This document shows positions 7,163-64,000 of a stretch of 64,000 nucleotides of DNA, piece after piece. The position numbers were made by a program, and so were the translations under genes. Source of the stretch: Raillietiella orientalis (taxonomy: Eukaryota); NCBI GenBank assembly GCA_036172245.1, contig JAYWIR010000011.1:3100001-3164000 (forward strand), given 5' to 3'. The number at the start of each line of letters is the position of its first letter. The stretch's first letter is position 1. The notes beneath the pieces are model-generated. The model made no database searches. It saw only the letters and a program-made list of their open reading frames with translations, and was not told the DNA's origin.

Positions 7163-8124
7163 TACTTTTTCTTGTATAAAAGTAAAAGCAGCATTATGTA
7201 GTGCTATCTGAAGACAAAGAGTTTGCACTCTGAAGTAGTGGATTACCAAGAAGATATTCAAATATTGTCCTGACCATATGCACATCCTCATTCTCTCGTT
7301 TTTTTTAATTGTTCTCAGCCTTTTGCTTCATAATTGAAATTAACAAATGAAATTATTAAATTAAGAAATACCATAAGTGTATAGAAAATATGAATCAAGA
7401 ATACATCTGGATAGATATTATGGTTTACCTTAAGAAGTTTTTCACATCGGATTTTCATACTTGAGCTGATGGGCACTGTTTATGAATTTTAGTGTATTGT
7501 GTCTACTGTTATTGGGGTGCTAATGATATTACAATACACTAGTGTAATTTTGTAAAATACGACCTGAAATAGTTGACATGGGAGCTAAGTAAAAACAAAA
7601 ATCTGTTGAAATGATTTTCGAAAACATGCCTTCACATTTGATGTAGGCAGCTTTTCAAAATTATAGTGCTTATGTTTTGAAATATCTGTCAAGTTCTGGT
7701 TCATGCAGATAAATAAGTCTTCATTTTCCCAAACAGTGAATTCATTAAGTTTTAGATATGCTGATATGGTAGTTTTATTTTTCAGTTTCCAAGATTATCA
7801 GTTTTGGACTGTACTTTTCATCTCATGTCAGGTTTTTGTACTCATTTAGTTTCTCCCCTTTTTTCTCAGCTGTACACTTTACATGGAAAACTTACTGTTT
7901 AGAGATGGAGTTGCATGAAAACTTGTCATCTATATTTCAAGTTAAAATAGTTCCATTTGTCCACTCATGTAAAAAACTGGACTGAATGCATTCTGAGTAT
8001 TCAGAAGTGTTTCCGAGTAGATTTCATTTGTGAATAAGTATGGGGTAAGGAGAAGAATAGTATCCATATCTGGCTAGAATAATGTTCCGATGTACTTAGA
8101 TCTTTTGCAAGAAGTAGTAGTCTA

Positions 8125-20404: not shown

Positions 20405-23400
20405 ACTGGGTGGCGGCTCGTTGGGAAGAGCTCGCCAGCCACCACTTCCGGAGGGCTCCCGCACTCCAGAAGTGTCGCTCCCTTTCCAGCACTCATCGTC
20501 AACCATTGCAACCTCGGGACGCGTTCCATCCCAGCACGAGAGCTCTAAGAATGGCTTCAGTTTGGTCTCCCCCCTTCCTCCCCCTTTCTCAGGACCGTCT
20601 TTCCCTTCCATGGAAGCGCCAATTTTTCGCGCCAGTCCACCCTGCGTGCTGCTCCCGAGGCCACCAGCGGCTCTCATCAACATGCAAGCCACGTTCCATG
20701 AAGCCCTCTCTGCAGGCTGCCCTCCGAGACCGGGAGAGAGAGAGAGGGGGGAGGGGGAACTCCGCCGACCCGAACCGCGCGACGCCGGTCGTCCAGCGAC
20801 GGTTTCCCTCGAGCTGGGAACGTGGCCTCTGGGAGCGCGTCAGGGAGAGCGTCTCATCGGTACCTTTTGCCAGCAGGCCGCAGTCCCACTCTGACTCCGA
20901 GAGTGGGCCCTGAGAATCTGCGACTTCTCCCCCTCTCCTGGTCAACGCAATGGCCCTTCAAGAAAGGGAGGACCCAGCATCGCGCAACGGGGGATGCAAG
21001 TTTGACCGAGCATCTCCAGCCTAAGGGCGCGGTACGACGCAGGGAAGCACTCCCCCCACTCGCTTGAAAGGCATCCGCACCGGGGGACGTCGCGTTCCCC
21101 GCGTCCCGCCCCGGCGGGGCAGCAGAGTCGGCAACCTCCGTTCGCGGTCGCGAGATGGCAGTGCCCGCCAGCCGGAGACGGCGCTGACCGCGCGTGCGGG
21201 AGAGGTGCGCGCGGTGGCGGCGGCGGCACGACGGCAGGAGTCCCTGGACCGCTGCGCACTCTCGGGCACGGCGGGCCGGCTGTCCCGCCCGAGAGGGCTG
21301 CGCGGGAAAGGCGGGCGCCTGCGGAGGCTCCGCGAGGTCACGACTGAGGAACCGGCCTCCGAACGGGAGCTCGGATCTCGGAACGGGACCGGAATGGTGG
21401 TTGGGAAAAGGGGAAGGGCAGAGTTTCCTCCTCCTCCTCTCGCGCTGCTGAGCTCTCCAAAGGTCATCTGAGACACCGTGCAGCAACCGGACCCCTCGGT
21501 CCTCCTTTACGCAAGGGCGCCGGGCGCCTCTTTCCCCGGAGGCGAGGGCGTCTCTCCCACCGCCCTCGGCACGACTGGTCTGCGTGCCTCCGCGCCCCTC
21601 GAGCTGAGGTCGCAAAGCACCGGGCGGTGATATCGCTAGCTGAGCGAGTGGTCATCGACTAGCTCAGCGAGCCGGTCGTTGCTGCCTTGCCCGAGAGGGC
21701 CGTGCAGGGCAGCAGATTCCGGAATGCGGTGGTCCTTGGTCGTAGTTCTTAACGTGGCGCTCCGTGGTGGTGGCAAAAGCAGTGGCGGTGGCGGTGGGAG
21801 TTGTCGCCTGCGTCTCCTACGCTGGAACGTGCGGGGGAGGGATCGGCCCACCGTTTCGTCGCCGGCAAAGATGTCCCGGCGTCCACTCGGAGCGATCGTC
21901 GTCCGGGGAAACGCCGAAGGGCGGGAAAGTCCGCAAGAGTGGTAGGAGGAGCGCGCCGGGAGAAAAACGGCGCGCTCCAGCGTCTGCGACTCCGGGAAGA
22001 GAAAAGTCTTCCGGAGACACGGGGTGGGCCGCCGTCTGAAGGAACTCCAGTGGAACCACGGCCTCTCGCAGGCGGACAGCGAAGATGGCGGCATCCTCCC
22101 ACGCGTGGCTCCCTGGCTCCCCGTTTGCAGTCGACCGCATGGGGAAGGAGGAGAGTTGTCCGCCGAGTCGCGACGCCTCCACTGCTGCTGGCCTTGCCAG
22201 AGCGGCGTGGGCGCGCGAGCGCTCAGTACGTCCTGCTGATCCTCCGACCTCTCTGCCGATTCTCCTTCTCTGCCGGCTGCGAAGATGACGGAACCCCGCA
22301 AGCAGGAATGAAAACTCAAGGCAACACAACATCCGTTTCCGCAAAACACCCACATCAGGGAGAGTTCCAAGTGCATTCCGTCTTGCGTTAGGCGGAATCA
22401 TGCTTTGGGGCGCCCAGAGGAGGTCACTTTCAGCCCCCAGATGGCACAGGTCGAGCAGCTCGAATCCACCCTGAGGCTGGCTGTGTTTCGAAGCAGAGCC
22501 GGAGACTCGAATCGCGTCCGTTCTCATCTTCGTCTAACTGACGCTGTATGTTTAGATTGCATCGTTGGCCGCCATGCTGATGTCGCTCACTGACGTCACG
22601 TCCCGAAGCCGGACTTGGGAACTGAAGCGACCTGCTGCCTCTGTGGGCAATGTCCACCAGGGATGGCATGGATCGCATGGGTGGAATGGCCCACGCGGCC
22701 GCGTGGACCTGCCGATCCCGACTGCGCAGTAGACCCCAGACCCGACAAGAGCTCGTCTTTTCGACGAAGACGCGAGGTCCCTCGATCGAGGCGGCGGAGG
22801 AGACGAGTTTGAGACGACGATCTGATCCTCGCCCTGCAGCAACGCATCCTCAAGAGACCTGCTGGTGGTGTGTGGAACCGCCGTCCGAGGAACCTTGGAA
22901 TTCCTGGGAACCTGCAGTAGCCGGCGGGAGAAACCTCACGTCGCCTCCGTGAACCTAAGTCGTTTTACGTTCCCGCAGGACGTCAGGGGATTTTTGAGAT
23001 GCCCTGACCGTCTAATTAGCGTTCCCGCTGGAGAGGGCGCCGTGGATCGGGTCGCCTGCGGCCACGCTACCCGCCTTCACGTTTCCGTGATGGCAGGTTG
23101 TGTATGCCCGCCTACGTGCTCGTCGGTCAACAACAGGCTGACGATCGACGGAGGGATGCCGTTGACGGTCGCAGCTGTGGACACCAAATCAGGGCATCGG
23201 GACCCGAGCAAAAGCACTCTCGTCCCGCGGACCTCCTGGTCGCCATCCAGGGTCAGGATGCTTGGCCCCAAGTACCCCAAGCGGATGCTGCCAGTGTGTC
23301 AGCCTCCTTCTCCGGACCGCGGGCTGCTTCTCCTCTGCCGTGCACACCATTCCCCCTCCCTTCTTCTTCCGGAATCTCCTGGAGGCAGTTGAAGGAGGCG

Positions 23401-24401
23401 CTCCCGGGACCTTGCGGGTCGCCGCGAGGCAAGGAAGCCGGGGGTCGGGGTGAGGAACGCGCGCGCCGACGGCAGCTAATGGGAAGGTTCCGGAAGAAGG
23501 CTTGAGAAGCATTTCCCTGGGCAGCAAGCAGTCTGGAGAAATGGGGGGAGGGGAAGGTCTCAGCGCGAGGAAGGGAAATTTCTCGAAGCTTCGGTAACCA
23601 GTCGTCAGCTCCGACGCTCCCGTGGCAACGGGGTATTCCGTCCTGCAGAAAGGTCGTTTCCACTTGGCCGCCTATCGAGATCTTCCCCGGGGCGCCTGGA
23701 AGTCGCTCCCCTCCCAAGGGATGAAACCGTGGAGGCTGCGCTGCAGCTGGCATCGTTGGCGCGGTTTCCTCTCGTTGCCTAGGCAGATAAGGAACTCAAT
23801 CACGCTAAGGGGATCACAGTGAAATTTTCCCGACATTTTTCATCTGGGCTCTACGGGAAGACAAGCACGGATCCTTCATTCGCAGCAGCATCCGGGAACT
23901 CCCGTTTGACAGGGAACGGGAAGGGGGAGGGGGAAACAAAGGAAACGCTGCTGCAGCTTCGTTTTAAAGTCTCCTCTTTTTTTTGTGCGTGTATTTTCCA
24001 ATCAAAGAAATGTGCGCTTTTTTCCTCTCCATTCCGCTTTTCCTTCCCCCTTCCTGGATGGCATTTCCCTCGATGCTTTTTTTCTTCTTCCCTCCTCCTC
24101 CTCTCCCCTCTCCTCCCTCCCTCCCGTTTCTCCCTTCTTTTATCGTGCGATTTTCATGCAGGAGATTGGTTCGATGTACACATGCGCGCGAACGCAGGCA
24201 TGCACGCACACACAGAAAGAAAGAAAAAATAAATTAAACAACGCGCTCCAGCGGAGAGATACAGATTGCTACGGCAACGGGATGGATGGAGAGGCACCCG
24301 CGCTCTCCTTTTAGCGAGGGCGATTTCCGCTGCCGAAGGGGAACGGCCGCCGCTCATCCTCCTGTCGGCGGGCGCAGGAAGGATGCGCCTGGCCCTCCCT
24401 C

Positions 24402-27400
24402 TCAGGAGGATGCGGTGCTCGAAGCCTCCGCGATCGCGGACAGGGGGGTGAGGTACCTCCTCGCTCTGTCTGAGGGCAAGGCGCCGAGACTGGTCCGGCG
24501 GGCCTCCTTGTCACTCGCCTGCCTGAGCTTTCTGTTCAGCCGAGGGGAGTACATGGGGCCGGGAACGCTAGCACGGTGCTGCTGCTGCTGCTGCGTAGTA
24601 GTAGGAGGAGGAGGCAGGTGGATCCTTCGTGCGGTGGTCAGCAGGTCCTGCGACTTGCTGAGGTTCTGCTCCAGCTCGCTGAAGAGCACGTAGTTCTCGA
24701 TGTTGCCGCAGGAGGTTATGCTGCTTTCCTCCGGGAGGCAGTGCCCCAGGGAAAACCTTGGCGGCATTAGGGACCTGGCGCACTCTGTTGACGAGTAGCT
24801 GAGCTCCTCGTGGGGCTTCTTCTGGAAGCCGGCCTGCTGCTGCTGGTTCGGCGAGCCGGCCTCCGTGACTTCGTCGTTGGCCGCGGAGGCGATGTCGTTG
24901 ACCTGCGCGCTCGGGCGGCACGCGGAGCACAGGCGGTTGAGGACGGTCCTCTTGGAAGTCGCGCTGACGACGCAGCACACGCTTCCGAGGCCGATGAAGC
25001 AGCAGCTGGCCAGGACACCGTAGTTCGCATAGCCGCAGTCGCTGAGGTACTCTAAAAATGGAAGACCGAAATAGAAAGGGCCTATCGTCCGAGTGGAAGC
25101 TTCCGGGACATCCCTCGGCCCGTTCGCGCGCATATGCGAGTTCGGAGAACCCCTCATTCCGGGGGCCCACCCCGAAAGGGAAGAGACCAGCGGCCCCTTT
25201 GCGTTCTGCCGCGACGGGCGACAGTGCCGGCGAATCTCCACAGATGGCAGCAGCGCCTCGCCGCGCCGCGCCGTCTGGAGTCGCCATACTTGCACTGCGC
25301 AACCTGACGGGCAGGCGGCGGTGATGGAGTGGCGGCGGATACGCGGAAAGGACTCGGAAGGGAGGAAGAGAGAGAGAGAGAGGAGGGAGGGGTGCACCAA
25401 TTGAGACCGGGGAAAACCCCGATCTCGGGCGCCCACAAGTGACGCCGCATCCCGGCTCTTGACCCAGGGAGTTGCATCGCTCGCGCTCATCGACTCGGTG
25501 ACGGCGGATCGAAAGCGCACAGCAGTGCGGCGCCGCCACCGCGTTCGCTTGAAAGGGGTGACTCCGTCCTCACTTGCAGGCTCCAGCTGCCCCGTCCCAT
25601 TGAAAGGGGAGGGGGACGTGAGCGCTGCTACTCTTCTCTCCTTCCCCGGTTCCCGCCAGTTCCCCTCCGCCGACGACAACCACGTTTGCGACGCAGGAAC
25701 CCAGGGACCATCCCGCCGCTCCATTTGCGGAGGGACGGGCGGTGCCAAATAATCTGAAGGATCCCCCAAAGGCCTCCCTCCTTCCCGGTCTCCTGCGCGC
25801 GATCCCGGCCGAGGCCGTCCCCAGACGGCCTCGAACCGCATGCTAGCGTTCTTCCCATCCCGAGCAACGTTCACCTCCAGAGCACGCGCGCAGCGCTCCT
25901 CGGCGGAGCAGAGGAAGACACCTCCAGGAAGGACCTGTCCGGGCAGACGGGGGAAGAGGAAGAAGGGGCTTACCTGCGGTGGGCGGTCCGAACAAGAAGG
26001 GGAGCGCCTGCGCCAGCTGGACGAGGCTCCAGGTCTCCGGGAAGTTCCTGGGGCGCATCTTCTGGTAGGCGAGGGCCTTCAGGGAGTAGACGTACCCGCC
26101 GCAAAAGAGGCCGTAGGCGCAGACGCAAGCAGCCACGTGGCCGCGCTCGCTGGCCGTCGCTGCCAGCGCCACGGCGACCGCGCACAGCAGCCCCGAGCCC
26201 TGGGCGAGCACGAGGCACCGGAGGGAGCTGCTCCCACCCCCACAGGCGCCCAGGGCCGCGCCGCACAGGAGACAGCCGAGGAACCATGCCAGGCCCAGGC
26301 ACACGTGCATCCTCACGACGTCCTCCCTCTCCAGGGCGCGCTGCGGAGGCGACGTCTTCCTGGTCTGGGCGGGGAGAGAGAGAGAGGGAGGGAGAGGGCG
26401 AGAAATGCGGGAGGCGAGGTGGTACGGAGGGTGCCGGCGCCGTCCTTCCACGCTTCCTAGGAGACGCGGTTCCCTGAAGGCACATTCCGTCCTGAAGTCA
26501 CGCGTACTGCGATCTTGGCACTGGGGTGCGGATCCCCTTCCTCCGGGGAGGGAGGGGACCCTCCTGCAGTCAGAAAGGGGAGTTTCCTGCGGTCAGCTGG
26601 AGGAATGTGGAGCTTCTGCATTCCTCCAACTGAACCCGGGAAAACGGGAGACCCCTCCGTGTCTTAGCGCGCCGGGAGGGGAGGCTCCGTGACGTCATCT
26701 TTCGCTTCGTCGTCGGAGGCCCCTTGGAACGGAGGAGGGAAGGCGAAGATTTCTCTGCACCCCTTCCTCCCTTGCCTTAGGGTGCGCCTGCCAGGCTTCG
26801 TTGCCCCGGTGAGCCGGTTGGTGTCCACCTGGGGAGGCGAGGATGGGTCAGCGTCGGAGTCAAGGGAGGAGTCCGCGTGCTTTGAGGACGCCCTGCGGCT
26901 CCGTCGGAACTGGAGCAGGGAGGGGAAGGGGGGGTAAGATGGAGAACGACACCTCCCTGCTGGGGGAACTGGGGTGATCCAGCGCGTGTGGAGAGAGGAA
27001 TGGGGTCTGCTTCCGAAATGCCTCTGAGACGGCCTTCCCTGCTTCCCAGGTTCGCTCCCAGGGGCAAGACTCCTTCCGGGAGGGAGTTTCCAATCTGCCT
27101 GTGGGGATCGTAGAGATCCTTAGGTCATCATTCTCCCGAGTCTCGGGGGAAGGACCAGGAGCAGGTGCCTCGCTCTCCGCGCTGCGGGTGCACAGCCGCA
27201 GGGGTCCTAGCAACGCGGGGAAGGAGGGATGGAGATTGAAGCAAATCCATCCGAAGGGCCCCCGATGAGCAGGCGCCTGGGGGGAGGGAAGGGAGGGGGA
27301 CCCTACGCGCTGGCTTATTTCTCCTCCCCCCTCCCTTCTTCCTCCCTACACCGCCTTCCCCAAGAACTCACCAGCTGGAAAAGAGGTGGGAATATGCCCG

Positions 27401-30400
27401 AGGCGTTGACCGCGGAAGAGATGAGGAGCAGACGGAATGCTCCGGACCGGAGCAGCCTGAGCGTCCCGGCGCTCAGGAGCTTCTTAGGCTTCTTCTTTTC
27501 CTTGAACGCTCTCCTCTGCAGGTTCTTGACGTGGAGTATGGCCCTCCGCTGGGGGTGGTAGAGGGAGGCGGAGCGGAAGCAGGTGGCCAGCAGGAACGTG
27601 CTGCAGGAGATACCGGTCACTGTCTGAAGACCCAGCGTCCATCCCATCTTCCTGGAACACAAGGTGCGCTTTTTTGGTTCGCTCTGCGTGCTCTTGGGGG
27701 CAGGGAAGGGGCAGGGCGCAAGCGGAAGAGGAGGAGGTGGGCGAGGGATGATCTGGAAACCCTTAGGTGTCCGAGGCTGCGCAGAGCTGCCCGCGGAGGT
27801 GGCAACGCATAATCGTCTGCAAAAGAAGCGCCGTGTGTGTCAGGTTCGACAGGGGATTCCGGGAGGCAGCAGGAGCCCCCCACTTGCCTTCCTCTCTTCC
27901 CCCTCGCAGAAACACCCAGCCGACGCTCCTCAGCAGGTTAGTTTAGGTTAGGTTAGGTTAGGTGGGTGAGTGGGTTCGGCAGCCTCTGGGGGACTGGGTC
28001 GCTCGCTTCGAAGGGTCTGCATGCAGGCCGATTCCATCGTCAGCCACTCGGGAGGGGGGAGAGAGGGGAGGACTGCTATGGTCTCGGGTTTTCTTTCTTT
28101 TGGTTAGCTAAGTACTCAAGAACTGTCGTTGGCCCGACAGCTCACGAAACTTGAACGCTGTCCACGCCACCAGGGGGTGCGTATCAACTCTTCAAGTTAG
28201 AAGGTACCCCGGGAGGGGACCATCCTATGGATCCAGGAAGGCTCCGGAGGAAGGACTACGTTCCTCTCACTATTGGGAGGAAATTTCTTCCTTGTTCCCT
28301 CCGGAGGACCCCCGGCCGTGGGGCTGCTCTTCTTTTCTCCCCCGAAGAGAAACCGGAAAGGATCTGCTCCCTAATTTCTCCTAGGGAGGAACCTCCTGAA
28401 AGGATCTGCTTCCTGTTTGCTCCTCCTCTGAAGAGAGGCCCTCAGGGACGCTCCCCAGCTTCTCTGAAGGACGCTCTCCAAAGAAAGCAACGCGCTTTTT
28501 GGCAAAATGGGAGAGGTATCAGTCCACCAGCTCCACGATGCGAGATGGAAGGGGTATTCCTTGATTCCTGGAAGGACCTTGGAGGGGGTTGACTGTCGAT
28601 CCTGGCCACTGGAAGGGGCCATCCGGGGGTTTCCGGCTTCCCTCAGCGCCGCACCCGAAGCCAAATGAGGCCAACCAGAGTCATCTTGCGTGGGGGATTC
28701 GAACCCCACGACGCACTCCCATTTCTCTGGCGTCGATCCTTACCCGGGTGGAATTCAAACCCACATCGCTTATTTTCCACGCGCGGAGAGACCGCAGCGA
28801 CACGGCCTTCAACGCGGGCAACTGGGTTTGCATCTTTAGGTTTCCAACGCACCCAGGGTCTCGGCCCGGAATGCGGCGAAGAAATGACTTTACTGATCGC
28901 AGTGAACTTCATTTCAACATTTCCAGCGTCCTTCCCTTCCAACATTTTGCAAATGCACTGTTAAATGATTCGAACCACAGCTGGGTCCACTAATCCTTTT
29001 TTGCACGGCTGCATCGTATGTCCTCATCGAAGGCAACGCCCCGGACGCGGCTGGCATCACCCCGAAAGTAAAGAGAGAGATGATGATTCCCGCAACTTTG
29101 AAGCATTCCCAGGAAGGAAAACTTGCTAATAGTCTTGGAAAGTCGGGAGGTGGTAACTTCGCAGCCCAGGAGGTGAAGGTGCTGCTCACACAGGAAGCAG
29201 AGGGCTGCACTCAGCTTGCATAGTTACGGTGCAGCCAGAAGATACATTACTATGAAGTTTTGTCTTCTTGCTTCCATCTGAACCACGTTCCTGTTTATAA
29301 TAATTAAGTACTTTTGAGGTATGAGGGCGTCCTCCTCCATGAATAATTAAGAGGCCTGGAAGTAGCTTCAGCCGTCTCGCAGCTTCCATTTGAAAATCAA
29401 TATTCTATTCAAGAAATATGCCCCACATCTCATTCCCCTGAATGGCATTGAATGCGATGGTAGAGGAGGAAAGTCGGCGAACGGCGGCCTGGAGTTTAAC
29501 GACCGCTGTAGTTGTAACGATATGCGGAAAATGTCTTCTTGCACAATCAGGCTCGAATTTGATCAGCGCAATTAGTTCACAGTTGCCTTTCCTCACAGCA
29601 AAGAAACGCGAAAAAAAAAAAAAAAAAAAAATCGTTCCTTATGCTTAGTGCCTTTCCGGTTGGCTCCTGGTTTTCCTCCTTCCTTTCCGAGACCCACGTT
29701 CCTGGACCCGCAAACTTTTTGGCTGAGGCGGGGCCGACCGTCGACTCGCTGAAGAGAAAAGAAGCGTCAAATGTCCACGAGCGCTGTCGCAGTTGGGCAT
29801 CGGAAACCGGAAGCGCCGGTTGATGTTCCGGCGAAAGCGAGACGGAAGAAGGAAGAGAGACTGTGACGTTCGTGAGTTCGGAATCTTCAGATGAGGAGGG
29901 CGACTGGCTGGCATAACTAAAAGAAAATACGAAATGCAACTTTATGCTTGGAGCAGCGCTCGGTGGCAGACCTCACAGGAAGAACCCAAAAGGGGACCTT
30001 TGGGGGGTTCATTCTCTCCGATCAGCATCAAAAGGGAGTTCGAAAATGTGTGACCAAAACGTTTTCCTTATCCTCGGACAGTATCCGTTCTTCCGGTGAC
30101 GCTCAAAATCCCGAAAGATCATAAAAACTAAACGTATGTGCTTGTTCTACGTAGATCAGTGTACAGATTGATTTTAATATACATGTACAGCTTCATATTT
30201 GTTAACACAGATATTATTAGCAGTAATATTGTTGCAGCAGATGTAATGATTAAGATTCGTTGTCATACATTTTACTAATAAAATTAATAAGCTGCTGATT
30301 ATCTTGTTGATATACATATACATTAAAGATTAATGTGTTCGTAAATATGAATAACCATGTATATCATGGATAATAACCATGGATTTCGAATCTGATCCCA

Positions 30401-33400
30401 GTTCTCCTTACCGACCAAACAAGCCACGCCCTCCCTCGCATCTTCCACCGAGAGAGGTACAAAGTTTGGCGGTCAAAGATCGGCATGAATGCAGGGCGTG
30501 TGTGCACAAGGAAGGAATACATTTTTTAATGGACGCGAAAAGACATTCCTCGAAGGCACAGTGCAATCCATGAAACTGTACAACTGAAGTGGAATTTCGA
30601 AAGCGGGACAATCGAATCGGCTGATTGTACCAGAAGGAAGAGAGGCTTAATACTAAACCGCGAGTCCTCAGGTGCCAAGCTTTTGCAGCATCCGTCTCCT
30701 CGCGAGAGTAGAGCGAGACCCGTAAGCGCAAGAGATAAAAACGCAGATGATACTCCTACGGCACCAGGACGCTTCGAAGTCATTGCTGTTCTTTAGAAAT
30801 GCGCTCATTGTTCTGCAGGGCTTGGAGACCAAGATCTTCCTACACGCCTTTCTCTTACTAATCGAATCATTCCTTTGGTTTCGATCCCGAAATGTGATTA
30901 TCGTTGCTTTTCCGAGAGCACGAGTAGCATAAGCCTTTCCAAAATCCTAATGAGATTTTCTCCGAAGCACTTTTTATTTCAACTGCTGATCAACTACTGC
31001 TCTTTAAAGATGCTGATTAAAATTACCACTGACCGAGAAACGCTATCGACGGGATGGCAGGATTTTTCACGGTTGAGTGGTTAGAGGGGGTGCGGGCTCG
31101 TTTCTGAAGGGAAAACCAAGACAACGGATGGTGCGAGTGGAGCAAGCAGCTTCTTCCTCCTAGATTCACATTCGGGAGTTCCAACAAAGGGAAAGCCTTT
31201 GGGTTTTTCCCTTTCCTTGAAATGAGCTGAGGACGATCACGTGTTCCCTGTAAACCGCCCATAGGAACCGAACAGAGGCAAGAGGGAAAACACCGATGTT
31301 CCCTCGCTTCAAGAACGGTTCACTTTGGAATGCCTCCATCCTCGGCTGTCGTTTCTGCAAAGAAGCGGACTGGGGAGTTGGGCAGCCTCATGCAGGAAAG
31401 CTAGATAAACAGTAGCGGGAACAAAACAAATGTCCAGTCAGGAGGTGGGAGATGAGATGGAGTTGAGAAATGGCACTTCTCGTTTGCAGCTTCCGACTTT
31501 CTCAGGTCTGACCGGCTACGTTGCTTGGAGACGACGGGGAAGCATCCGTTCGGAAACCTTCCCGATCTAATCGCTCGGGCTTTCCGAACGACTTTCAGTA
31601 AGACTCCGAACGATCTGTTCGGCCATCTTAAATTTTAAATGCGAAAGAAATCCATGTCGGATTCCAGAGTCGTCATCGAAAACGCTGCCGTCATCCCCAG
31701 AAAGCATCAATTTTCCTTACACGAGATTTGCTCTAACTAAACTCCCTATCCTTCGATTCTGGAAAGTTTGGAGAGATTTTTACATGGTAAGTGAGGAACT
31801 GCGCCAAAAGTAGCGCAGGCTCACGATGTGAAGAAGCGCTCGAACAAATAAAGATAAATGGACCAGCCTGCGACCTTTTGTTTTCATAAGCTGCTGCCTT
31901 CCCCGGAATAATTCTAGGCGTGGTTGCGTTTATTGCCGCAAGTAATTACTACTACACGAGAAAAGAGCAATTTTGTTGGAACATCAAGGATGCCACCCGA
32001 AAAGATGACGACAGACCAAATGCTAACATGGGAGGAAGAGGAAAAATGAAATAGTGTTCCAGAGACTGGATTCCTTCCCCCCCCCCTTCCTCCTCCTCTT
32101 CTTCTTCTTTGCAAACCAAGTTGTGAGACAGTCCCCGACCACGAACATTGCTGGCCACGCAAATTCCTTGGACGTTGTTTTCCCGAACCAATATGGTCCC
32201 AAAATGGAACGACAACATGGAAATGGGAGGCAGATGAAGGAACAGTTTGGTAAGAGAGAGAGAGAGAGAAAAAAAAACCTCTTGTTACGTGGCAGTTCTT
32301 GAAACAAACCGTAAACAAAATTTCCGTCTTCCACAGGAAGCACAGACTCAGTTGGAGACAGCAGTTCCTGAGGTCATTTCGTTTTCATTCTGTGTACCGA
32401 GGAGGATTGCGAGGCTCGGAATAACGGAGGAACGAAAGCTTTTGCGAACAGCGGTCCTTCATCTTCCTGGAAGAAGGCGGGGGAAGGGGGAATCGAAAAG
32501 GAATCCGGCGATTGATGTGTTATTTGAAGGAAATGCTTCAAGCGCTAAAACAAGGACTTTTATCGTCGACTCGGTCCTTGCATGCAATCGATAACGAGGA
32601 TGCAGCATCCTTTTTTTTTTTTTTTGATGGTGATTGATTTCCTTACTTGACAAGAAGGTCGACCATCACCGCCATTGTTGCTATTCCCAAACCGTAACAT
32701 GACGTCACTATTGCTTCCGTCAGGTGCCATTTTTTTTTAAAATACTGAGCTACAATCAATAGGGCAGAATCTCTGCTGAAGCTTGCTCCCGTGCCTGGAA
32801 CAAAAAGAAAAGAAAAAAAGATCAGGGGGCAATTCCTCATTCGAAGATTCCCCCGGTGTTAAGTTTCCATGCAAATGAAACGCGGAAGATCATGCTTCTT
32901 CCCAGGCGAGGAAATCCTCCCCGAGAATGTCGCAGCGTTCGGATGGGGAGCAGCCTCCGTGGTGAAGCTGCTGCTCCCGAGAACCACTTCCGGGTGACAC
33001 GGGAACGGTCGGGAACGACGGGTTCGGAGGAATGCAGTCGGAGTCGTAATGTCAGCCTCCAACTTTTTGATCGATAGGAGCAAGTTATTACGTTCATTGT
33101 AGGGAGGAGAGGGAGGAACTACCAACGGGAAGCAGGCAGCCTCCTCCTCCTGCCTTCCCCGAATTTTTACTAGTCATCTCTTGTCTGTCACGGATTCCCG
33201 GATCGATAGCTTGTATATATAGTTTGTGCTCACGATGAATAATCCACGCACCATATGGGGGATTTGATTTATTGGGAGAGATCTGGGAAATGCACCATGG
33301 CGTGGGAAATACCCTCGTCTTTATGAAGATCGTTTGCGTGGAAGTTTAGACTGGTTAATCCTACGCATCCGTGGTCTCCCACGTGCGCGGACGCGCGCAC

Positions 33401-34396
33401 GTCCTTTTGTCAGCGGGGAAACCTGGTCAGCGGTACCGGAAGAGCGAAACTGCTTACCCATGAATATGCTGTAGCTGAGCGCGAGCTGGTGAAACTGAGT
33501 GGAAAAGGATGCGAACAGGCATCCCATGGAAAACACGATTCCCCCGAGTACGGCGAACAGCCTGACGGACTTTGACTTGGAGAAGAAGGTCGAAACCGGG
33601 GAGAACGCCAGGGAGACGGATATTGACAGGGAAGCCATCCACGCTGGAAAAGAATGACGCAGGTCGTCAGCAATTCGGTTGGGAAATTCGGCGTCCAGGG
33701 AAGGCGATGCGAGGTGCGACTGCATAAGCTCCGGGGCGCAGGGAGGGGCAGAATTCTTTGCCACGTTCTGCCACTCTCTACAGGAAGCTTCTGGACCGGG
33801 TTCGCTTCCCCTCAGGAGAGTAGGGCGCGGTCCGTAGAAGGGTTGTTGCCGCGAACGGCGTGGGGCTGGCTCGCGTCGCTGCGATGCGCCCCGGGAGGCG
33901 GGCACGAGCGGTTCCCGTTGGTCCCACTGGATCCCCGCGGGGTGCTCGCCGAGCCGGGACGTTCTTGCTCGGGGCTGCAGGGATGACTTCACGGGCCCCG
34001 CCGCATAGGGTCGGAACCGCGCCTCCGGCTGGCTGGATACTCACTTGAGTTCTTCCTACCGCTCTCGGTGAGGTTTTCGAACAGAAAGGGCGAGAGGACG
34101 CCCAGGGCGAACTGCAACCCGAAGGTGACCCAGCAGATCATGGCCGAGTTGAACAGCACCACCCATCCCCACCCGTTCTCGGGGTAGTAGTGCTTCCACA
34201 TGGTTAGGGACTTAGCGTTGTCGGGGTCCGCCGCCCTCGTATTGTAGGCCAGGGTCCTCGGGAACAGGTCGGGCTCGCTGACGAAGTTCTTCTTCACGCG
34301 GTGGTCCAGCCTCGGGTTCCAGAGGGTGTCGATCGCCCCCTCCGGGAGAGACTGGGTCCGGAAGTTCTTCAGGGAAGTCTTCTTCCTCACAGCCAT
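24402..34396 (-). CDS. Monocarboxylate transporter-like MFS protein (SLC16 family), 668 aa, 6 coding exons
   Basis: Exons 34396-34045, 33643-33458, 32794-32647, 27651-27372, 26364-25974 and 25051-24402 (TGA). GT-AG junctions join into a 2007-nt frame. SLC16-type motifs HYYPENGWGWVV (TM1), IVAQYFKKKW, GWTLGLQ and RSASLYHPQRRAILH. An in-frame stop at 34466-34468 supports ATG 34396 as the start. Confidence 0.9.
27943..27962 (+). repeat. (TTAGG)4 interstitial telomere-type repeat
   Basis: ttaggttaggttaggttagg with degenerate flanking units; TTAGG is the ancestral arthropod telomeric repeat. Confidence 0.75.
28089..28826 (-). mobile_element. SINE-like family A, near full-length copy in SLC16 intron 3
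   Basis: Two tandem B-box/T-arm-like motifs (reverse complement gtgggtttgaattccac and ggggttcgaatcccc), internal subrepeats (gaaaggatctgct x2), a 3' stem-loop at about 28164-28182 and an A-rich tail (T-rich on the + strand, 28089-28101). Confidence 0.72.
29060..29600 (-). mobile_element. Degenerate pogo/Tigger-like DDE transposase relic in SLC16 intron 3
   Basis: Frameshifted fragments occur in DDE_1 order: AFNAIQGNEMWGIFLE, GLLIIHGGGRPHTSKV (cf. LLxxDxxxxH), VSSGCT..., VQPSASCVSSTF (cf. LQPLDxxxxxxFK) and ECFKVAGI (cf. FKKCGI). The catalytic Asp residues are lost. Confidence 0.45.
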
Positions 34397-43279: not shown

Positions 43280-43500
43280 GGTAGGACACACGTGGTCCCT
43301 ACCGTCCCCAATCCCAAGGGGAAACTGCCAGGCTGCCCCCGGCAGCGGACCAGCCGCAGCGGAGGGGAACAAACAAGAAAACGAAAATGAAACGAAATCA
43401 AATAAAAAAATAAATCCGAAAAGACCATGGGAAGGGATCGCGTCCCGCTGGAGGGCGCCCTCCGCATCCTTCCCGGAATGCCAGCGAGTTCGGGCTGCAC
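43280..43500. repeat. Dispersed repeat family B, copy 1
   Basis: ggcagc..., an A-rich tract (gaaaatgaaa), then gggaagggatcgcgtcccgctggagggcgccctccgcatcctt; matches the 55.2 kb and 63.8 kb copies. Confidence 0.55.
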
Positions 43501-55179: not shown

Positions 55180-55412
55180 GCAGGAACCACGTTCCACCTC
55201 GTTCATCAACTATGGAGCCTGCCGAGAAGCCTGCACGTAGACCGGCGAGGTTCGCCTCGGCAGCAGAAAGGAGAGGGCAGGAAAAAATGAAAATAAAAGT
55301 ATATAAATTTATTAATTTATATAAAAAACCCTATGGCGGATTCGGGAAGGAATCACATCCTGCTAGAGGGCGTCCTCTGCATCTTTTCCAGGATTCCGGC
55401 AACTTTCTGCTG
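55180..55412. repeat. Dispersed repeat family B, copy 2
   Basis: ccggcgaggttcgcctcggcagcaga...aaaaatgaaa...gggaaggaatcac...agagggcgtcctctgcatctt...ccggcaactttctg. Confidence 0.62.
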
Positions 55413-56950: not shown

Positions 56951-58317
56951 GGTCGACGTCTTTACCCGCGGTCAAGGCTGGAATCCCTCTCGCCTCCACG
57001 GAGAAGGCAAGGGCAGTTAATTCCGCTGGTCTCGGAGATGCCGGCAAGTGGCATCGGGGGAGCTCCTCCCTTCCCCTGAGGCGCGATTGCCCCCTCTTTG
57101 ATCCCCTGAGGCGTCCACACACCCCGTCCCCGTCACCTTCCTGCCTGCACGCGCCTTATTCGGGGCTCGGGAAGGAGTTCCCTTCCGACCGCCCCCGCAG
57201 CATCCTCCAAGATGAAGGGCGTTCGAAGGGGGCGGACAGCTCCCCCGGAAAGGCACCCGCAAGCCGAAGGAGAGAACCCGGGGGGGAAGAGGATTCCGGT
57301 TCCGTTTTGCTTCCCCTTCGCTCGAGCGAGCAGAAGTCCAACGAACCTTCACGAGGGGGGTCGGGATCGCGCGGCTTCCCCACTCATCGGGAAATCCGAC
57401 GCGCGAGGAACGCGTCCGTTGCGTCACCGTCTCACCAGGAGGGCTTTCGCAAGCGGAAGAGGCGGGCGGCGCCTTCCGGGTTCACCGGTGCCAGCAGCGG
57501 CCGTGCAGCGAATGCTCTACGAGGGCACACGGCGGGTGCTTCCCGCCGTCCGCCACCCGTTCCCGTGGGGCGGAGGAGCCGGGACTCGTCCTTCGGACCG
57601 GGCGCGCTCTCGAAGGGGGAGCGGCGCCACCGATGCATTCTCGTCTCTTCGGCGCTCTCGTCTTAAACTATTTTATTTCTTTGCTGGCCGTCACCGGAGC
57701 GGGTGGAGCATGGAGGGAAGACGGGAGGGGGAGAAGAGGAGGTGGGGAAGGAAGGGGAAGAGGCGCTGGTCACGTCTGGAATCTCCTTCGTTGTGGGGGT
57801 GGGAGGAGACGATGCAGGGAGGCGGTCACGAATCCTGGGGTGCGCCGGGTGGCCGGCCAGAAAAGGGACGGAGGGGACTCTGACTAGCAGAGCTGCCGCA
57901 CGACCCACTTGATGTCCAGGCGGGTGGACTCGGCAGCACGAGGTGGAACTTCTTCTCGAGGAACGTGGCGCATAGGTACTCGCGTTCGCGGCCGGAGGCG
58001 GACCACGCCGCGGAGGAAATTGCCGAAGGGGTAGATGCTCTCCCCCGGAGTTGACGCGGGCACCCGAGGCCGGCAGAAGTTCCATGGAAGAGGTTCCAGG
58101 AGGTGCTTCTCCCCCTCTCTCCCTCCTTCTCCTGAAAGGGAGGGGCTAGTGTCTCTTTTCTTCCTTCCCGAGTCTCTGCCGTCCGCCTACAGACCGGCCT
58201 GCGCGCTGTCCGGGCGCCTGAGGAGGAAACGTTTCCCCTGAGACGTCCCTGCCGCGGGAACCTTCTCCCGGGAGACTGACCACGGGAGGGTGAGGGGAGG
58301 GCTTGGCAGGGGAAGGC

Positions 58318-58611
58318 TCAGCGAGTCCTCCTCAGGATGCGCTCCAGGAGCTCCAGGAACACCGTGCCCAGAAACTGGTAAATCCCGTCGAAGTTGAACC
58401 CTCCACTTACGGGCAGCAGGATTTTCAGGGGCAGCACGGCCCTTACGTTCAGGACTATCACGGCCACGACGAACACGAAGAGGATGAAGGACTGGAGGGG
58501 AGTCAGGTGCAGAGCTGACGATACCACGTCTACGGAGATGGGGAACAGTCCGGAGCATCTTCCGATAGCACAAGCTGCGAGCACAACCACCAGATTGCTC
58601 GACCCTTCCAT
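58318..58611 (-). CDS. Small predicted membrane protein (97 aa; signal-like N-terminus plus one TM segment), unrecognised family, paralogue of 60694-61164
   Basis: MEGSSNLVVVLAACAIGRCSGLFPISVDVVSSALHLTPLQSFILFVFVVAVIVLNVRAVLPLKILLPVSGGFNFDGIYQFLGTVFLELLERILRRTR. Shares 29/61 ungapped identity with its neighbour. Normal protein composition, unlike the flanking Arg/Pro/Gly-rich spurious ORFs. Confidence 0.7.
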   Translation of the reverse strand: MEGSSNLVVVLAACAIGRCSGLFPISVDVVSSALHLTPLQSFILFVFVVAVIVLNVRAVLPLKILLPVSGGFNFDGIYQFLGTVFLELLERILRRTR

Positions 58612-59894
58612 CTTCTCTCTTCTCTCGCCCCCGCAGCACTTCGCGGCGTCCTTGGAGCCGCGGGATTCCCTCACGCTGTGGACGGAAGGGGAGCCTCCTC
58701 GGAAGTGTTCCCGTGCCGGGATGAACAGAGTGGATCCTGCTCGATCCTTCCCAGCGCCGCATGCAGATCTTCCTGGACCCTCGTCCGACCAGCAGAGGAG
58801 CCAAGACTGAACGGATCCCTCGCCAGACGCGCGGTCGCGAGATTCGAAGGGATCAGACGGGTGAAGCATCCGGGAGACCTGTTATTCTTTGTCCATCGCT
58901 CGGAGATTGCAGACAGAAGGCCGATAAGGCTTCTGGAGATGGTCGAAAGATAACGAAGAAGAGGAGCAAAACGCGACTACGCCCGCAGTTCTCAGGAGGA
59001 CACCAGCATACGCACACTCGCAAAAGAAAGCACAAAAAAAAAGAAAGAGGAAAGACAAAAAGCAAAGAGAGAGAGAGAGAGACAAAAAAAGATAGAAGAA
59101 GGAACGTTGGGGCTTCCGTGACATGGCTTTTCAAGAACAGATTCCTGCTGATCGACTGGCAGTTGGTCGTTCGGCCGCCAGAGGGACGGGGAGGAAGTGA
59201 CTCAATAGCCCGTCAGGGTGGCGGAGCGACAGCAGACATCGAGGCAGTTGCCACGGAGTTGCCGCTGAAGGCTGACAAGTAGGAAGAGGAAGCACCGGGA
59301 AAGAGATATATTTTTTCTCGCCCCCGGAGGAAGTGGATGGGCAGACCCCCTCACGCTCCGGCCGAGGCGGAAAAGAAGGAAAAGGGAGAATAGCCGCTTC
59401 TTGAGAGCCCCTTCCTCCCTTTTCCGGGAGACTCTTTGTCCGTTTGGGAAGAACTAAGAGGAAAGCAGATGGTAGGCAGGTCCGAAAAGGAAGAGGCGCG
59501 TCTCGTGGACACAGGAGGGAGTCCCGGTTTCCCAGGAGGCATCGCGCGCATCCACCTCCGGCACGGTGCTGAAGATGGATGCGGCAGCCGGTGATGAATC
59601 GCTCGTCGGAAGCTGTGGAGGCGGGGCACCAGCCATCAAAGCACGGAGCCGCCGTGCCAACAGCAGCAGCCCAGCGAGAAGGTTCGTCCCATCTCTCAGG
59701 GAAAATTCTCCGCGACTGGGGATGCGCAGCTGCGCGTCTGCATTGGCGATGATCCGCAGAATCTTGTCGCCAAGGGACTCGGGGCAGGACGGTTTGCAGT
59801 GCAGTCGTCGTTGTCGACTGCTTGCCTGCAGTCTAAAGGAAGCAGCGTCCGCGTCCCCGACAGGAACAACAGCAAAGGCGAGTTTGACTGCGCC

Positions 59895-60245
59895 TTTCCT
59901 TTTTTTTTTTGGCTTCTCAAGGGACGCTGAAGAACCTTTGGGTCTCCTCTGGGGTGGCTCACGAAACTCTTTGACAGTTCCACGCCACCCAAGGGTGCGT
60001 GGCCCTCTTCGAGTTAAGGGACCACCCCGGGCGGGAACCTGCCTATGAATCCGGAAAGGGATCCGTCAGGAGTTCCTTCTTCCTCTCGCTCTTGGTAGGG
60101 GACCACGGAAGAAACGACTCCTCCCTCTTTTTCGTTCCTGGCGGTACTCTAGCAGCAGCAAGCGAGAGGAGGCACAGTGGGTGGTGCTGGAGCGATCCAG
60201 GAGGAAGTAAGAACGAGGGAAGGACCCCACAGTAATTTGGTTTCT
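59895..60245 (-). mobile_element. SINE-like family A variant (shared 3' end, different body)
   Basis: T-tract at 59895-59910, gctcacgaaact, stem-loop ccacgccaccc-aa-gggtgcgtgg (59980-60002) and ctcttcgagtta...ctatgaatcc. Similar to 62385-62660 over about 270 bp. Confidence 0.65.
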
Positions 60246-60693
60246 CTCCCTCTCGTCCGGATCGCCTCATCATCCAAGCCCCCTGGGGTTCCGAATCCCT
60301 CTGGTCTTCCCCTTTTGGGCGGAAGCGCCGACCGCACCTTCGAGCGCTCGGGTCCGCGGAGCAAGAGGGTGCGGAATTTCCCGGAGCTTCCCTTCCTCCA
60401 GTTCCAGCCGGCCCTCCGTTTTTCCTTTCCTTCGTTCATGACCTTTTCTATCATGCCTGCTGATCGAGCGCCGGATGCCGAGTTCCTGCGACTGTGTGAC
60501 TCGAGGGTTCGTGAGGTCACGAGCGACTCCTCCTTGGAGATGTGAGAGAGAACCGAATCCACAGCATGCATGCATGTTCACCGTACATGACGCGGCGAGA
60601 CGCATAGGAACTTCTCGGACCCGTCCATGAGGTGGCGCGCAAGGAACGAGTAGAAAAATCCCTCCCGCCGACGGCGTAGTGGCAGTGGAAGGC

Positions 60694-61164
60694 ATGAAGC
60701 TGTGCTACGTCGTGTTCCTGTTGCTGGCAGCCTTCCAGGTCTGCTTCGCCATATTCGGGTACATAGAGATCGACGTCATCACGACCGCCTTCTCCCTGAG
60801 CCCGATGAAGTCCTTCATCGCCTTCCTGTGCGTCCTCGGAGTGGTGATCCTGAACTTCCGCAGGATACTCCCCGTCAAAGTATCCCCTCCCATGATGGGT
60901 GGCCCCAATTTCGACATCGTGTACAACTTCCTGGATACGAAGTTCCACACTCTGGTCAACCTGTTGCAAGGGAAGTCGTACGACTTCGTGCAGGACCTCA
61001 TCACCGCCATCGGCGAGCAGCTGGCGCCCCCGAGGATCGCCCACCTCGAAGAGAAGAGACAGGGGAATGCGACCGGCCCGGGAAGCGTCACCTATGCCTT
61101 GCGGGACCGATTCCTAGGGAACTTCAGCTCCTCGGAAATGTACGTATCTCGAGAACCAGTGTGA
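60694..61164 (+). CDS. Small predicted membrane protein (156 aa; signal peptide plus one TM segment), unrecognised family, paralogue of 58318-58611
   Basis: MKLCYVVFLLLAAFQVCFA-IFGYIEIDVITTAFSLSPMKSFIAFLCVLGVVILNFRRILPVKVSPPMMGGPNFDIVYNFLDTKF... Strong C/G-ending codon bias (ttc, atc, gac, tac, aac), intronless, and homologous to the opposite-strand neighbour. Confidence 0.78.
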   Translation: MKLCYVVFLLLAAFQVCFAIFGYIEIDVITTAFSLSPMKSFIAFLCVLGVVILNFRRILPVKVSPPMMGGPNFDIVYNFLDTKFHTLVNLLQGKSYDFVQDLITAIGEQLAPPRIAHLEEKRQGNATGPGSVTYALRDRFLGNFSSSEMYVSREPV

Positions 61165-62384
61165 CCCGGAACTCTTCAGCAGCAGTGGAGGCGGCTACAG
61201 CAGCAGGGAACCTCCGTTTGCGATCTCGGAGCAGAACTGAGTCCACGGAAAGATCCCTCATCCTCCTCTTTTCCCCAATGTCGGAGGGGAGAAGAAGGTG
61301 CAGGTACCACACGGAGCGAGCGAATGAAGGTCCTTTCTCTCCAGACCGGGAGAAGGACGCCTCGGATCCCTGCCGCTGTCGCCGCCGCCCGTCGAGCCCC
61401 GCCCGGCACGGCCGTGTGCCTTTTTGTCCCGGAAAGCCCATTAAAAGTCGCTGCTCGGAGGGGCAGTGGGTCTCCGGCGGTGCTCTGATTACATTCTGCT
61501 CGGCTCGCCTCACGTGGCCCCTGCCTCAGGCCACGTGCATGCCCGCATCCAGGGGCAAAAGCATCCGCCGGAGGGTGGGAGGAGAAGGGGGAAGATGAAT
61601 CAAGTGTTTGCAGGTGCGAGGATGACTGCTGAGAGGCACGCGAAGCATCTCGCGCAACCCATGGCAACCTTTGCCTCCGGAAAGGGGAATTCATCTTTTC
61701 AGGAGGTGCATCTGGGAGTGAGGAGCAGTAAGTAAGGAAGCGGGGAGAGGAAGGCGCTCTCTATTCCCTTCTTTCTCCCCCCTCATCCTTCCCGAAGCAT
61801 CCGCTCCGATACGCCCGTGGAGCGCCCGTCGCTTCTTGGGCCGGGTGCGGTTCGCCGTATCCTTCCCTGTCCCGTATCTCGAAGTGTATGAGAAACTGGG
61901 TGACCCGCTCGGCTGATCTGCGTCCAGGTTCGCCTAATCCCCCGCCACCGCACCAGCGATCCGATCCGTGAGGTGCTGTCCGGCACTCACGCCTGCGGGG
62001 TCTCATCGCGCAGTCCGCTCTCGTTCCGTCCCACTACGAGCGATGCACCTCCGGATACGCCTTGGAACGACGCCCGGAGAACGCGGGCCGAGGGAAGCTC
62101 TAGGTTACGGGAAGGGCACCGGTCAAGGGAAGCTTCTACAGCCAGGCGCGGAACAGAGGAGAAACGGCAGTCGACGACATCCCTTGCGGCTGTCAGTCTA
62201 TTCAGGCAGATCTGGTTCCTCCCGGGAATGCTGTTCAGGAAGGGAAAGGGGGGAGGACGAAGGGGAAGGAGGAGGAGGAGGAGACTTGCAAGTGCTACAG
62301 GGGAAACAACGTCAGCTCCACCGTAACCTACCTCCATGAGAGCTTCGTGCTTTCTGCCTTTTGCGAGGGTGGCCTTGGGTCGCG

Positions 62385-62660
62385 GTCTTCCACGCCATCC
62401 GTGGGTGCGTGCCCCTCTTCGAGTTAGGGAACCACCCCAGAAGGGAACCTCTCTATGAATCCAGGGAGGTTACGAAAGATGGAATCCCTTCTTCCTCTCA
62501 CTCTTGGTAGGGGACCACGGGGGAAAGGGCTTCTCCCTCTTTTCCGTTCCTGGCGGCGCACTCGAGCAGCAGCGAGCGAAAGGAGATACAGTGGATGGTT
62601 CCGGCGTGATCCAGGAGAAAGAAGGACGAGAGGGAAAAACTCCACGGCAGTTCAGTTCCT
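62385..62660 (-). mobile_element. SINE-like family A variant, second copy (direct repeat of about 59975-60245)
   Basis: ttccacgccatccgtgggtgcgtgcccctcttcgagttagggaaccacccc...cttggtaggggaccacgg...cgttcctggcgg...agcagcagc...gatccaggag aligns with the 60 kb copy. Confidence 0.65.
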
Positions 62661-63763
62661 TGAGAAATGGTTTTCACGCCCGGATACCGCAGCCATGCGG
62701 CCGCTGCCAACCCGGGGTCCTACCATCCGTGTCCCTACCTCAGCCGGCGTTCCTTTGCTGGAGAAGAAGAACAGTGGCCTTCAGCTGAGCGAAACACCTC
62801 AATTGATTTCAGACCCTTTTCCTTCTTTCGCTGCGTACGCCTCCTCCCATGCCCTTTCAGTGAATTCTCTCACATGGAGGGGGGGGGGGGAACTTGCGGA
62901 TCGTGGAAAGTCACCCCGGGTGCAAGCGGAGGGGATCCTCTTGCACTTTCATTGAATGCACCAGCTTTGCGTGCGCTGCTGGGGATTTCCTTCAGTGAGC
63001 CACCCCCTCAGATCCAATGAGGGGCTCCGCATCAGATCGCTTATCCACAGCAGCATAGGCTGCAGGATCAGCTGGACCGCCGTGCGTGCTCAGCTGGAAA
63101 AGCTATCTCCTGCCTCCCACTCCCCAGGAACTTCAGTGGGTGACCTTCCAGGGATTACTTCTACTGCTGGGTCAGTTCTTCCCTTCACACCAAAGAGAGG
63201 GAGGCCGAGTGATTTTCTCAGCATCCGTGGCATTGGTCACCATGCGTTCTCTTCCCTGAGAGACCGGCATCTCATCTTTCGAGCGGTTTCCTAGAAGGCC
63301 TCTCCTTGGAGAAAAACAGGAGACCTCTCCCGTGCCATTTTTCTGCCCCCCGTCCAGAAGCTCCTACGTGCTGCTTCATTCCTCTCCAAGTGATTCTCGA
63401 GGTCTCCGCGTCGAGTATCCTTGGAACGTCTTGGATGCTTCCTTCAAGAGGGGAGGTTTTTCCCTCTAAGAGGATGCGGAAGCTCCGCCGTTACCCACGG
63501 AGTCGAAACTCTCCTGGGTCTTTAAACGGACTCAAGAGACGAGTCTTCAAAAACGAAGAGGATGGAAAGGGGTAAACTATTCCCAGAAAGCAGGAATTGC
63601 GAGTCGATTCCAGGTCCGCAACAAATTCCGAGAGGAGAAGAAGAAAAACAGACAAAAAAAAAAAAAAAAAATGCTTCATCTTCTGACGACTTGAAGCGTC
63701 CAGGGGTCGACACACAATGTCGCCGGAGCGTTTATTTATAAAAACAAATATACAAGTCAGTGG

Positions 63764-64000
63764 CAGGACGCTTGGTCCTGCCACGTTACTTATAACTACT
63801 AGAATGAACTGACGAGAACTGGAGCGCAGGCCGGTGGGGTTTGCCTTGGCAGCAGAGGGGGAGGGAAACAACAAAAAAAGAAAAATGAAAGAAAAAATAT
63901 ATACAAAAAAATTGGGAGGGTTTGGGAAGGAATCACTGGGTTCTGGAGGATGTCCTTTGCATCCTTGTAAGGATGCCGGCAAGTTTCTGTTTCGCGATCC
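63764..64000. repeat. Dispersed repeat family B, copy 3 (may continue past the window)
   Basis: ccggtggggtttgccttggcagcaga...aaaaatgaaa...gggaaggaatcac...ggaggatgtcctttgcatcctt...ccggcaagtttctg. Confidence 0.62.

Follow-up and report, generated by a model that had tools for sequence, protein, structure and literature searches.

We describe two short open reading frames (ORFs), A and B, which lie head to head near the end of a 64,000-nt stretch of the Raillietiella orientalis genome (assembly GCA_036172245.1, contig JAYWIR010000011.1, positions 3,100,001 to 3,164,000; hereafter the window, by which positions are numbered). The two are very probably real paralogous host genes that descend from an old inverted duplication, a judgement drawn from the DNA sequence. 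The fuller interpretation favoured here, to which we give a probability of roughly 55%, is that A and B are host genes of this origin whose protein sequence is under selection, that they lie in a GC-rich repeat island, and that they encode type I membrane microproteins acting as adaptors.

Coding constraint on the paralogous pair

The two divergent ORFs, placed on opposite strands and 2,082 nt apart by an earlier interpretation made from the letters alone (the sequence-only reading), are present at the positions collected in Table 1. Its 61-residue core was reproduced: residues 25-85 of A and 24-84 of B align without gaps at 29/61 identical positions. By BLASTP the paralogues share 36/84 identities (43% between themselves, E 6e-20), and their alignment scores 172, where 5,000 shuffles reached at most 63. 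Both proteins also carry the two hydrophobic segments, the LN-x-R motif and the P-x-x-GG-x-NFD-x-x-Y-x-FL-x-T-x-F motif that had been attributed to them. The description of the genes as intronless stands as far as each conserved frame is uninterrupted, and does not extend to the 5' untranslated regions, where introns may occur. The frame of A contains a further in-frame ATG 86 codons upstream (58869), and the extension that it would open has neither codon bias nor a counterpart in B.

Likeness between the two loci is confined to the core. When the two 1.9-kb regions were compared by blastn, one of the 17 pieces was significant (61% over 175 nt, E 1e-11), and in-register DNA identity fell to background on both flanks of the core. 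Within the core, the first, second and third codon positions are identical at 34, 47 and 28 of 61 codons. By the NG86 method, the nonsynonymous and synonymous divergences (dN and dS) were 0.46 and 1.08, giving a dN/dS of 0.43 (bootstrap 0.19-0.80, with 7/2,000 replicates at or above 1). Pairwise codon models returned dN/dS values of 0.008, 0.018 and 0.325 and rejected neutrality at p 1e-8, 1e-4 and 0.003; under the composition-aware codon models synonymous sites were saturated. The ratios for the paralogues (0.008-0.43) are thus not near 1, and the proposal of purifying selection on an old inverted duplication was borne out, both by the restriction of likeness to the core and by a dN/dS below 1 under all models. 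If the genes are expressed, the survival of the motif through saturation of synonymous sites marks it as the candidate functional site.

Codon composition points the same way. GC content at third codon positions (GC3; GC1 and GC2 for the first and second) is 0.80 in the core of A and 0.85 in that of B, values close to the 0.88-0.97 of other exon-like blocks in the island, and the GC3-minus-GC2 difference of the cores was reached by none of 532 open background windows. The codon bias of B is exon-like from the first codon, and in A GC3 remains at 0.80-0.92 up to the stop; residues 116-156 of B, with their weaker bias, are probably loosely constrained. Each ORF is followed on its own strand by a candidate poly(A) signal, and the chance of a right-strand hexamer after both is ~0.04, given that each strand has 16 such sites in 49 kb. 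Furthermore, a neutral copy of A, simulated in 2,000 runs at an assumed indel rate, stayed open in 5.7% of runs at 0.1 substitutions/site and in 0.15% at 0.2, as against 42% and 18% when substitutions alone were allowed. Since a dead copy would rarely stay open beyond 0.1-0.2 substitutions/site, constraint on A appears to have held through most of the period that followed the duplication. From these properties of the sequence it is highly likely that A and B form a real coding pair.

Table 1. Positions of features at the A/B locus and in its spacer
Feature	Position	Strand	Remarks
ORF A	58318..58611	-	97 aa + stop; core GC3 0.80
A residues 1-21, predicted signal peptide	58549..58611	-	Cys at -3, Gly at -1, in register with B; weaker than that of B; GC3 11/21
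A conserved core, residues 25-85	58357..58539	-	outer loop, membrane helix ~38-56, cytosolic motif 67-85; 29/61 identities, gap-free
In-frame stretch past the A stop resembling the last 18 residues of B	58189..58245	-	9/18 identical
AATAAA, candidate poly(A) signal of A	57672..57677	-	~640 nt past stop; only such minus-strand hexamer between 55308 and 63731
Spacer between start codons	58612..60693		2,082 nt; 59050-59900 single-copy DNA
Copy of unclassified dispersed repeat in spacer	59896..60230	-	genome-wide matches and 10-copy alignment
ORF B	60694..61164	+	156 aa + stop; GC3 0.85-0.95 over residues 1-115
B residues 1-19, predicted signal peptide	60694..60750	+	Lys, hydrophobic run, Cys at -3, Ala at -1
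B conserved core, residues 24-84	60763..60945	+	outer loop, membrane helix ~37-55, cytosolic motif 66-84
B residues 116-156, hydrophilic tail	61039..61161	+	GC1/2/3 0.59/0.49/0.68, weak codon bias
ATTAAA, candidate poly(A) signal of B	61440..61445	+	~275 nt past stop; only such plus-strand hexamer after 55292

Predicted anatomy and the search for relatives

Topology was predicted from hydropathy and from general cleavage rules, which B fits well and A weakly. Cleavage of signal peptides favours small residues at -3 and -1, and signal peptides are typically poorly conserved, with gaps. The N-terminus of B has a lysine and then a hydrophobic run ending in Cys-Phe-Ala at 17-19, and A carries Cys-Ser-Gly in register at 19-21; the predicted signal region is also the least conserved part of the A-B alignment and holds its gaps, the loop and the second helix being gap-free. 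Given a real coding pair, a type I arrangement is the probable one for both proteins, in which a signal peptide is cleaved off, ~17 residues lie outside, a single short helix crosses the membrane and the tail is cytosolic, and the proposal of small single-pass membrane proteins is supported as a prediction. The predicted outer part is net acidic. The helix is followed by LN-x-R with basic residues (two in A and three in B within ten residues), a Pro/Gly linker and the invariant NFD-x-x-Y-x-FL segment, in which Y-x-F-L occupies the identical place in A and B, and then by amphipathic helices with a moment of 0.93 at A85-95 and 0.55 at B97-107. A likeness between the helix end and the third transmembrane segment of nicotinic receptors was dropped, as it had no Pfam support.

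Because a catalytic fold is lacking and almost nothing lies outside the membrane, A and B can be read as accessory or adaptor subunits, an idea that we put forward tentatively. In the secretory or endosomal pathway, the helix would pack against another membrane protein as its partner, and the invariant GG-x-NFD-x-x-Y-x-FL segment, together with the amphipathic helix that follows, would dock on cytosolic sorting or signalling machinery; the pattern of a tyrosine, two further residues and a hydrophobic residue is that of a sorting signal. It is quite improbable that the pair founds an unrecognised arthropod family of adaptors with minimal ectodomains, in which a new docking motif, co-expression and joint action in receptor sorting, signalling or cell fusion would be combined, with A perhaps lengthened, through stop readthrough or splicing, to a form that matches the tail of B. 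Nothing found supports the suggestion that A and B act as a heteromer. A complex prediction for B1-115 with A, in which the chains were folded without alignments, scored 0.00 and counts neither for nor against it.

Within the genome, searches with each protein matched only ORFs A and B (2/2 candidates), and searches with each DNA region matched only the region itself (1/1). The genome was also scanned with four motif patterns, and of the loci obtained 29/29, 4/4, 30/51 and 30/32 were fetched and scored against a profile; no third paralogue was present among those fetched, only A and B passing the scoring. Pattern counts were at or below those of the controls in three of the four scans (29 vs 44, 4 vs 3, 51 vs 69 and 32 vs 41). 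Likewise, neither a third copy nor a relic of B was found in the 60 kb downstream, which includes the DNA after the second local copy of the spacer repeat described below.

Beyond this genome, 0/13 and 0/43 candidates were confirmed in a set of 5.8 billion proteins searched at near lengths only, and a two-sequence profile gave 0 matches among 1.84 billion representatives with no limit on length. Pattern matches in viral, prokaryote and metagenome contigs were confirmed in 0/81, 0/227 and 0/299 cases, and phages gave a single sub-threshold match (E 0.2). The best Pfam match had E 0.037 at 14 bits, where the cut-off is 30, the best in PHROGs had E 0.54, and the best among NCBIfam and PDB sequences (E 0.12 and 1.4) were sub-threshold. 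The Atlas searches returned no usable match to A or B, viral structures searched with a poor model of B (mean predicted local distance difference test, pLDDT, of 42) gave an uninformative 0/93 matches at E 0.001, and Rfam gave two chance-level matches far under threshold. A literature search by general terms, which cannot show absence from print, found no description of an A/B family. The earlier statement that no known family could be assigned therefore held across the Pfam, PHROGs, NCBIfam, PDB, representative, viral and prokaryote searches, and the check for a transposable-element or viral relative, or for a characterised family, returned no confident match.

These results bear less on novelty than their number might suggest. 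A conserved exon of the patatin-like lipase gene, a housekeeping gene in the window, finds best relatives that are only 52-58% identical over most of its length, the best named matches including beetle, lizard and krill; the lineage is thus poorly sampled, and short hydrophobic proteins easily drop out of reach. For this reason orphan status is real as a search result and weak as a sign of novelty. Homology detection failure has been set out as a null model for lineage-specific genes, its test requiring orthologues at known distances (Weisman, Murray and Eddy 2020, PMC7660931). A and B resemble orphans of that kind in being short and apparently fast-evolving, in having no detectable relative outside their own genome and in belonging to a lineage far from the databases; they differ in that, without orthologues at known distances, detection failure is only a candidate cause. 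To speak of an undescribed system, as the sequence-only reading did, was to overstate the case, since the family has two members, the lineage has no close database relatives and an orphan look is expected of short, fast-evolving genes. A and B are an unassigned small gene family of lineage-restricted duplicates of a small membrane protein, and not a new kind of system.

Two known groups invite comparison, and both are analogies for A and B rather than families to which they belong, because the defining features of neither are found in the pair. DAP12 and FcR-gamma are type I proteins with outer parts of 21 and 5 residues, whose cytosolic tails carry a tyrosine motif (PMC2556779). A and B are predicted to resemble them in type I layout and in a tyrosine motif on the cytosolic side, and their outer part would be of similar brevity (~17 residues) if the signal is cleaved. 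They depart from these subunits in that the membrane helix (A41-55 or B40-55) contains no Asp and the outer part, as predicted for the mature proteins, lacks a Cys through which disulfide dimers could form; there is no sequence likeness, and the analogy is one of layout only. Judged by the tyrosine spacing of immunoreceptor tyrosine-based activation motifs (ITAMs), neither protein has a paired ITAM: A has one tyrosine motif, and the second of B lies 19 residues on and is unshared. The FAST fusogens of reoviruses are proteins of 100-200 residues with a small outer part and one helix, followed by a cytosolic tail that has an amphipathic helix and is disordered at its end (PMC7830690). On the predicted anatomy, the likeness extends to size range, small outer part, single helix, amphipathic helix and disordered cytosolic end; unlike these fusogens, A and B have a predicted cleaved signal peptide, lack a myristoylated or cystine-loop outer part, contain no real polybasic run and have no viral relative that we could find.

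If expressed, A and B would be a pair of membrane microproteins likely to be overlooked by annotation pipelines. They would then extend the known range of small membrane proteins restricted to one lineage, and would show that the GC-rich repeat islands of this genome can retain real genes. Their importance would grow with the discovery of a partner, or of relatives spread more widely among arthropods; no general picture is changed at present.

Alternative readings of the pair

Several observations weigh against the interpretation given at the outset. No orthologue was found against which constraint on A and on B could be measured separately, and a pairwise dN/dS cannot separate two constrained genes from one constrained gene and one recently relaxed. 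Composition enters into the codon test to some extent, the low GC2 being due in part to hydrophobic residues. Old repeats in the window also align as ~40% "protein" identity over 80 positions (2/14 pairs, 600 frames); those copies are multi-copy, unlike A and B. As to anatomy, the strongly hydrophobic run of the helix is only 13-15 residues long, the signal region of A, with a Glu at 2 and an internal Arg, is weak and lacks codon bias (GC3 11/21, p 0.004), four-residue tyrosine motifs arise by chance, B carrying four of them, and the AlphaFold model of B, which places helices at 3-22, 37-58, 72-91 and 97-109 at low confidence, is too poor to use (pLDDT 42, predicted template modelling score 0.23).

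One rival account concerns the fate of A. Past its TGA the frame of A stays open for 163 codons and includes the stretch that matches the last 18 residues of B at 9/18 (Table 1), as if A had lost a tail; the likeness ends at the last residue of B, and the next codon is Cys, one base from the stop codon of B. Scores as high were reached by 4/2,400 windows, 3/741 open windows and 114/20,000 shuffles, with three frames tried; a 16-residue offset is needed, third positions match at 5/19, as in random sequence, and codon bias is absent (GC1/2/3 0.64/0.76/0.71). Going by this likeness, there is about one chance in three that the stretch is the relic of a longer ancestral tail, in which case A has lost or bypasses a tail that B has kept. 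Together with the degraded signal region, the tail likeness keeps alive the view that B works and that A, a truncated or recently relaxed copy with no joint function, is turning into a pseudogene. We regard this as unlikely, given that A retains the gap-free core, the whole motif, its high GC3 as far as the stop and a candidate poly(A)-type signal of its own, and that the tail likeness itself may be due to chance. The sequence of A does show hints of relaxed constraint.

The nature of the proteins admits further alternatives. Were the first hydrophobic segment left uncleaved, A and B would be two-pass hairpins with an amphipathic helix that shapes or marks membranes of the endoplasmic reticulum type, which would suit the two hydrophobic segments, the fairly hydrophobic loop between them, the shortness of the second helix and the amphipathic helices beyond. 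Conservation is nevertheless distributed as for a cleaved signal, lowest and gapped in the first segment and gap-free in the loop and second helix, both N-termini fit the small-residue rule, and no hairpin membrane family in Pfam was matched, so that we see in this a minor possibility. It is improbable that A and B are exons, whether terminal or internal, of larger spliced genes, and that their products are not microproteins. Splice-like signals do occur in and near A, and the searches of the 5.8-billion set covered near lengths only, which leaves room for this view; yet both frames open with a Met and a signal-like segment, the exon-like codon bias of B begins at its first codon, the profile search with no length limit gave no match, and no host-gene domain was found at a convincing E-value between window position 37 kb and ~20 kb past the window end. 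Finally, the pair might derive from a small membrane protein of a virus, symbiont or mobile element, such as a FAST-like fusogen, that the host has kept. The intronless frames stand in a repeat island, and their short outer part, single helix, basic residues, amphipathic helix and loose tail recall the FAST layout (PMC7830690). This, too, is hard to credit: with two copies only there is no element-like multiplicity, no relative appeared in the viral, prokaryote or metagenome contigs, the phages, PHROGs or the representative library, and the proteins have neither a Gly in a myristoylation context nor a Cys loop in the outer part, while no more than 2-3 basic residues follow the helix.

The spacer and its genomic setting

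Co-regulation of A and B from a bidirectional promoter, which the sequence-only reading had suggested, is unsupported, the start codons being 2.1 kb apart with a genome-wide repeat between them. A shared promoter is possible and nothing found supports it; the head-to-head order follows simply from an inverted duplication. Divergent pairs have been defined by start sites less than 1,000 bp apart (PMC2670823). Like such pairs, A and B are adjacent, on opposite strands and pointing apart, and unlike them they are separated by 2,082 nt between start codons with a repeat in that interval.

The spacer repeat gave 40 scored matches out of 277 candidates genome-wide, at 70-81% identity outside the self match. 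Ten aligned copies start at a T tract, which suggests the 3' end of a retroposon on the minus strand, and the spacer copy is probably such an end. The alternative that it is the 5' end of a long interspersed nuclear element (LINE) acting as a two-way promoter was rejected, since a start at a T tract looks like a 3' tail on the other strand and, in a Pfam scan of frames beside eight repeat copies, 0/91 matched (of 163 listed). The stretch 59457-59900 was considered as the end of a LINE ORF2 and showed no likeness to a nearby zf-RVT frame (E 7). A second local copy lies at 62388-62645; this and 59978-60230 are 80% identical over 260 nt, closer than most copies, and flank ORF B, 2.4 kb apart.

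The surroundings had been described as full of frameshifted relics, a picture that is upheld by dispersed repeats, some within the spacer and some next to it, and by fragments of reverse transcriptase 5-10 kb past the window end, though Pfam matched 0/101 of the other frames between 57 and 64 kb (102 scanned). Downstream of the window, reverse-transcriptase and zf-RVT fragments of decayed retroelements were found in 2/148 frames, and lie at L003:5603-6640 and L003:9545-10000.

The assembly comprises 210 Mb. GC content in the window is 31-38% over the first 14 kb, where compact genes occur, and 50-67% from ~15 kb to ~18 kb past the window end, where several dispersed repeat families are present; the switches, between ~33% and ~60%, are sharp at both limits (14-15 kb in the window and ~18 kb past its end). 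AT-rich blocks hold compact genes, and GC-rich blocks hold repeat debris and genes with large introns. Among the former is the patatin-like lipase gene at 5536-7270 (+), compact and with short introns (Pfam Patatin, E 6e-9), and a protein kinase gene sits in the next AT-rich block, ~25 kb past the window end (L005:5179-6044). At 2-1351 (-), a 450-codon open frame, acidic and of low complexity with a short internal tandem repeat, runs off the window. Exon-like stretches with GC3 up to 0.97 at ~24400-34100 (-) may belong to a gene of monocarboxylate-transporter type, an unconfirmed label for which three scanned frames gave no Pfam match.

Additionally, a stretch of 1,313 nt at 20952-22264 recurs 55 kb away (~12.3-13.6 kb past the window end, L004) at 99.6% identity. 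In a setting of otherwise old repeats, this is a very recent duplication or a young mobile element; a Pfam scan of the frames in the downstream copy gave no match. Another family of dispersed repeats, unclassified and AT-rich at one end, is represented in the window at 43403-43494, 55219-55409 and 63705-63993, and is common to many of the genome loci fetched.

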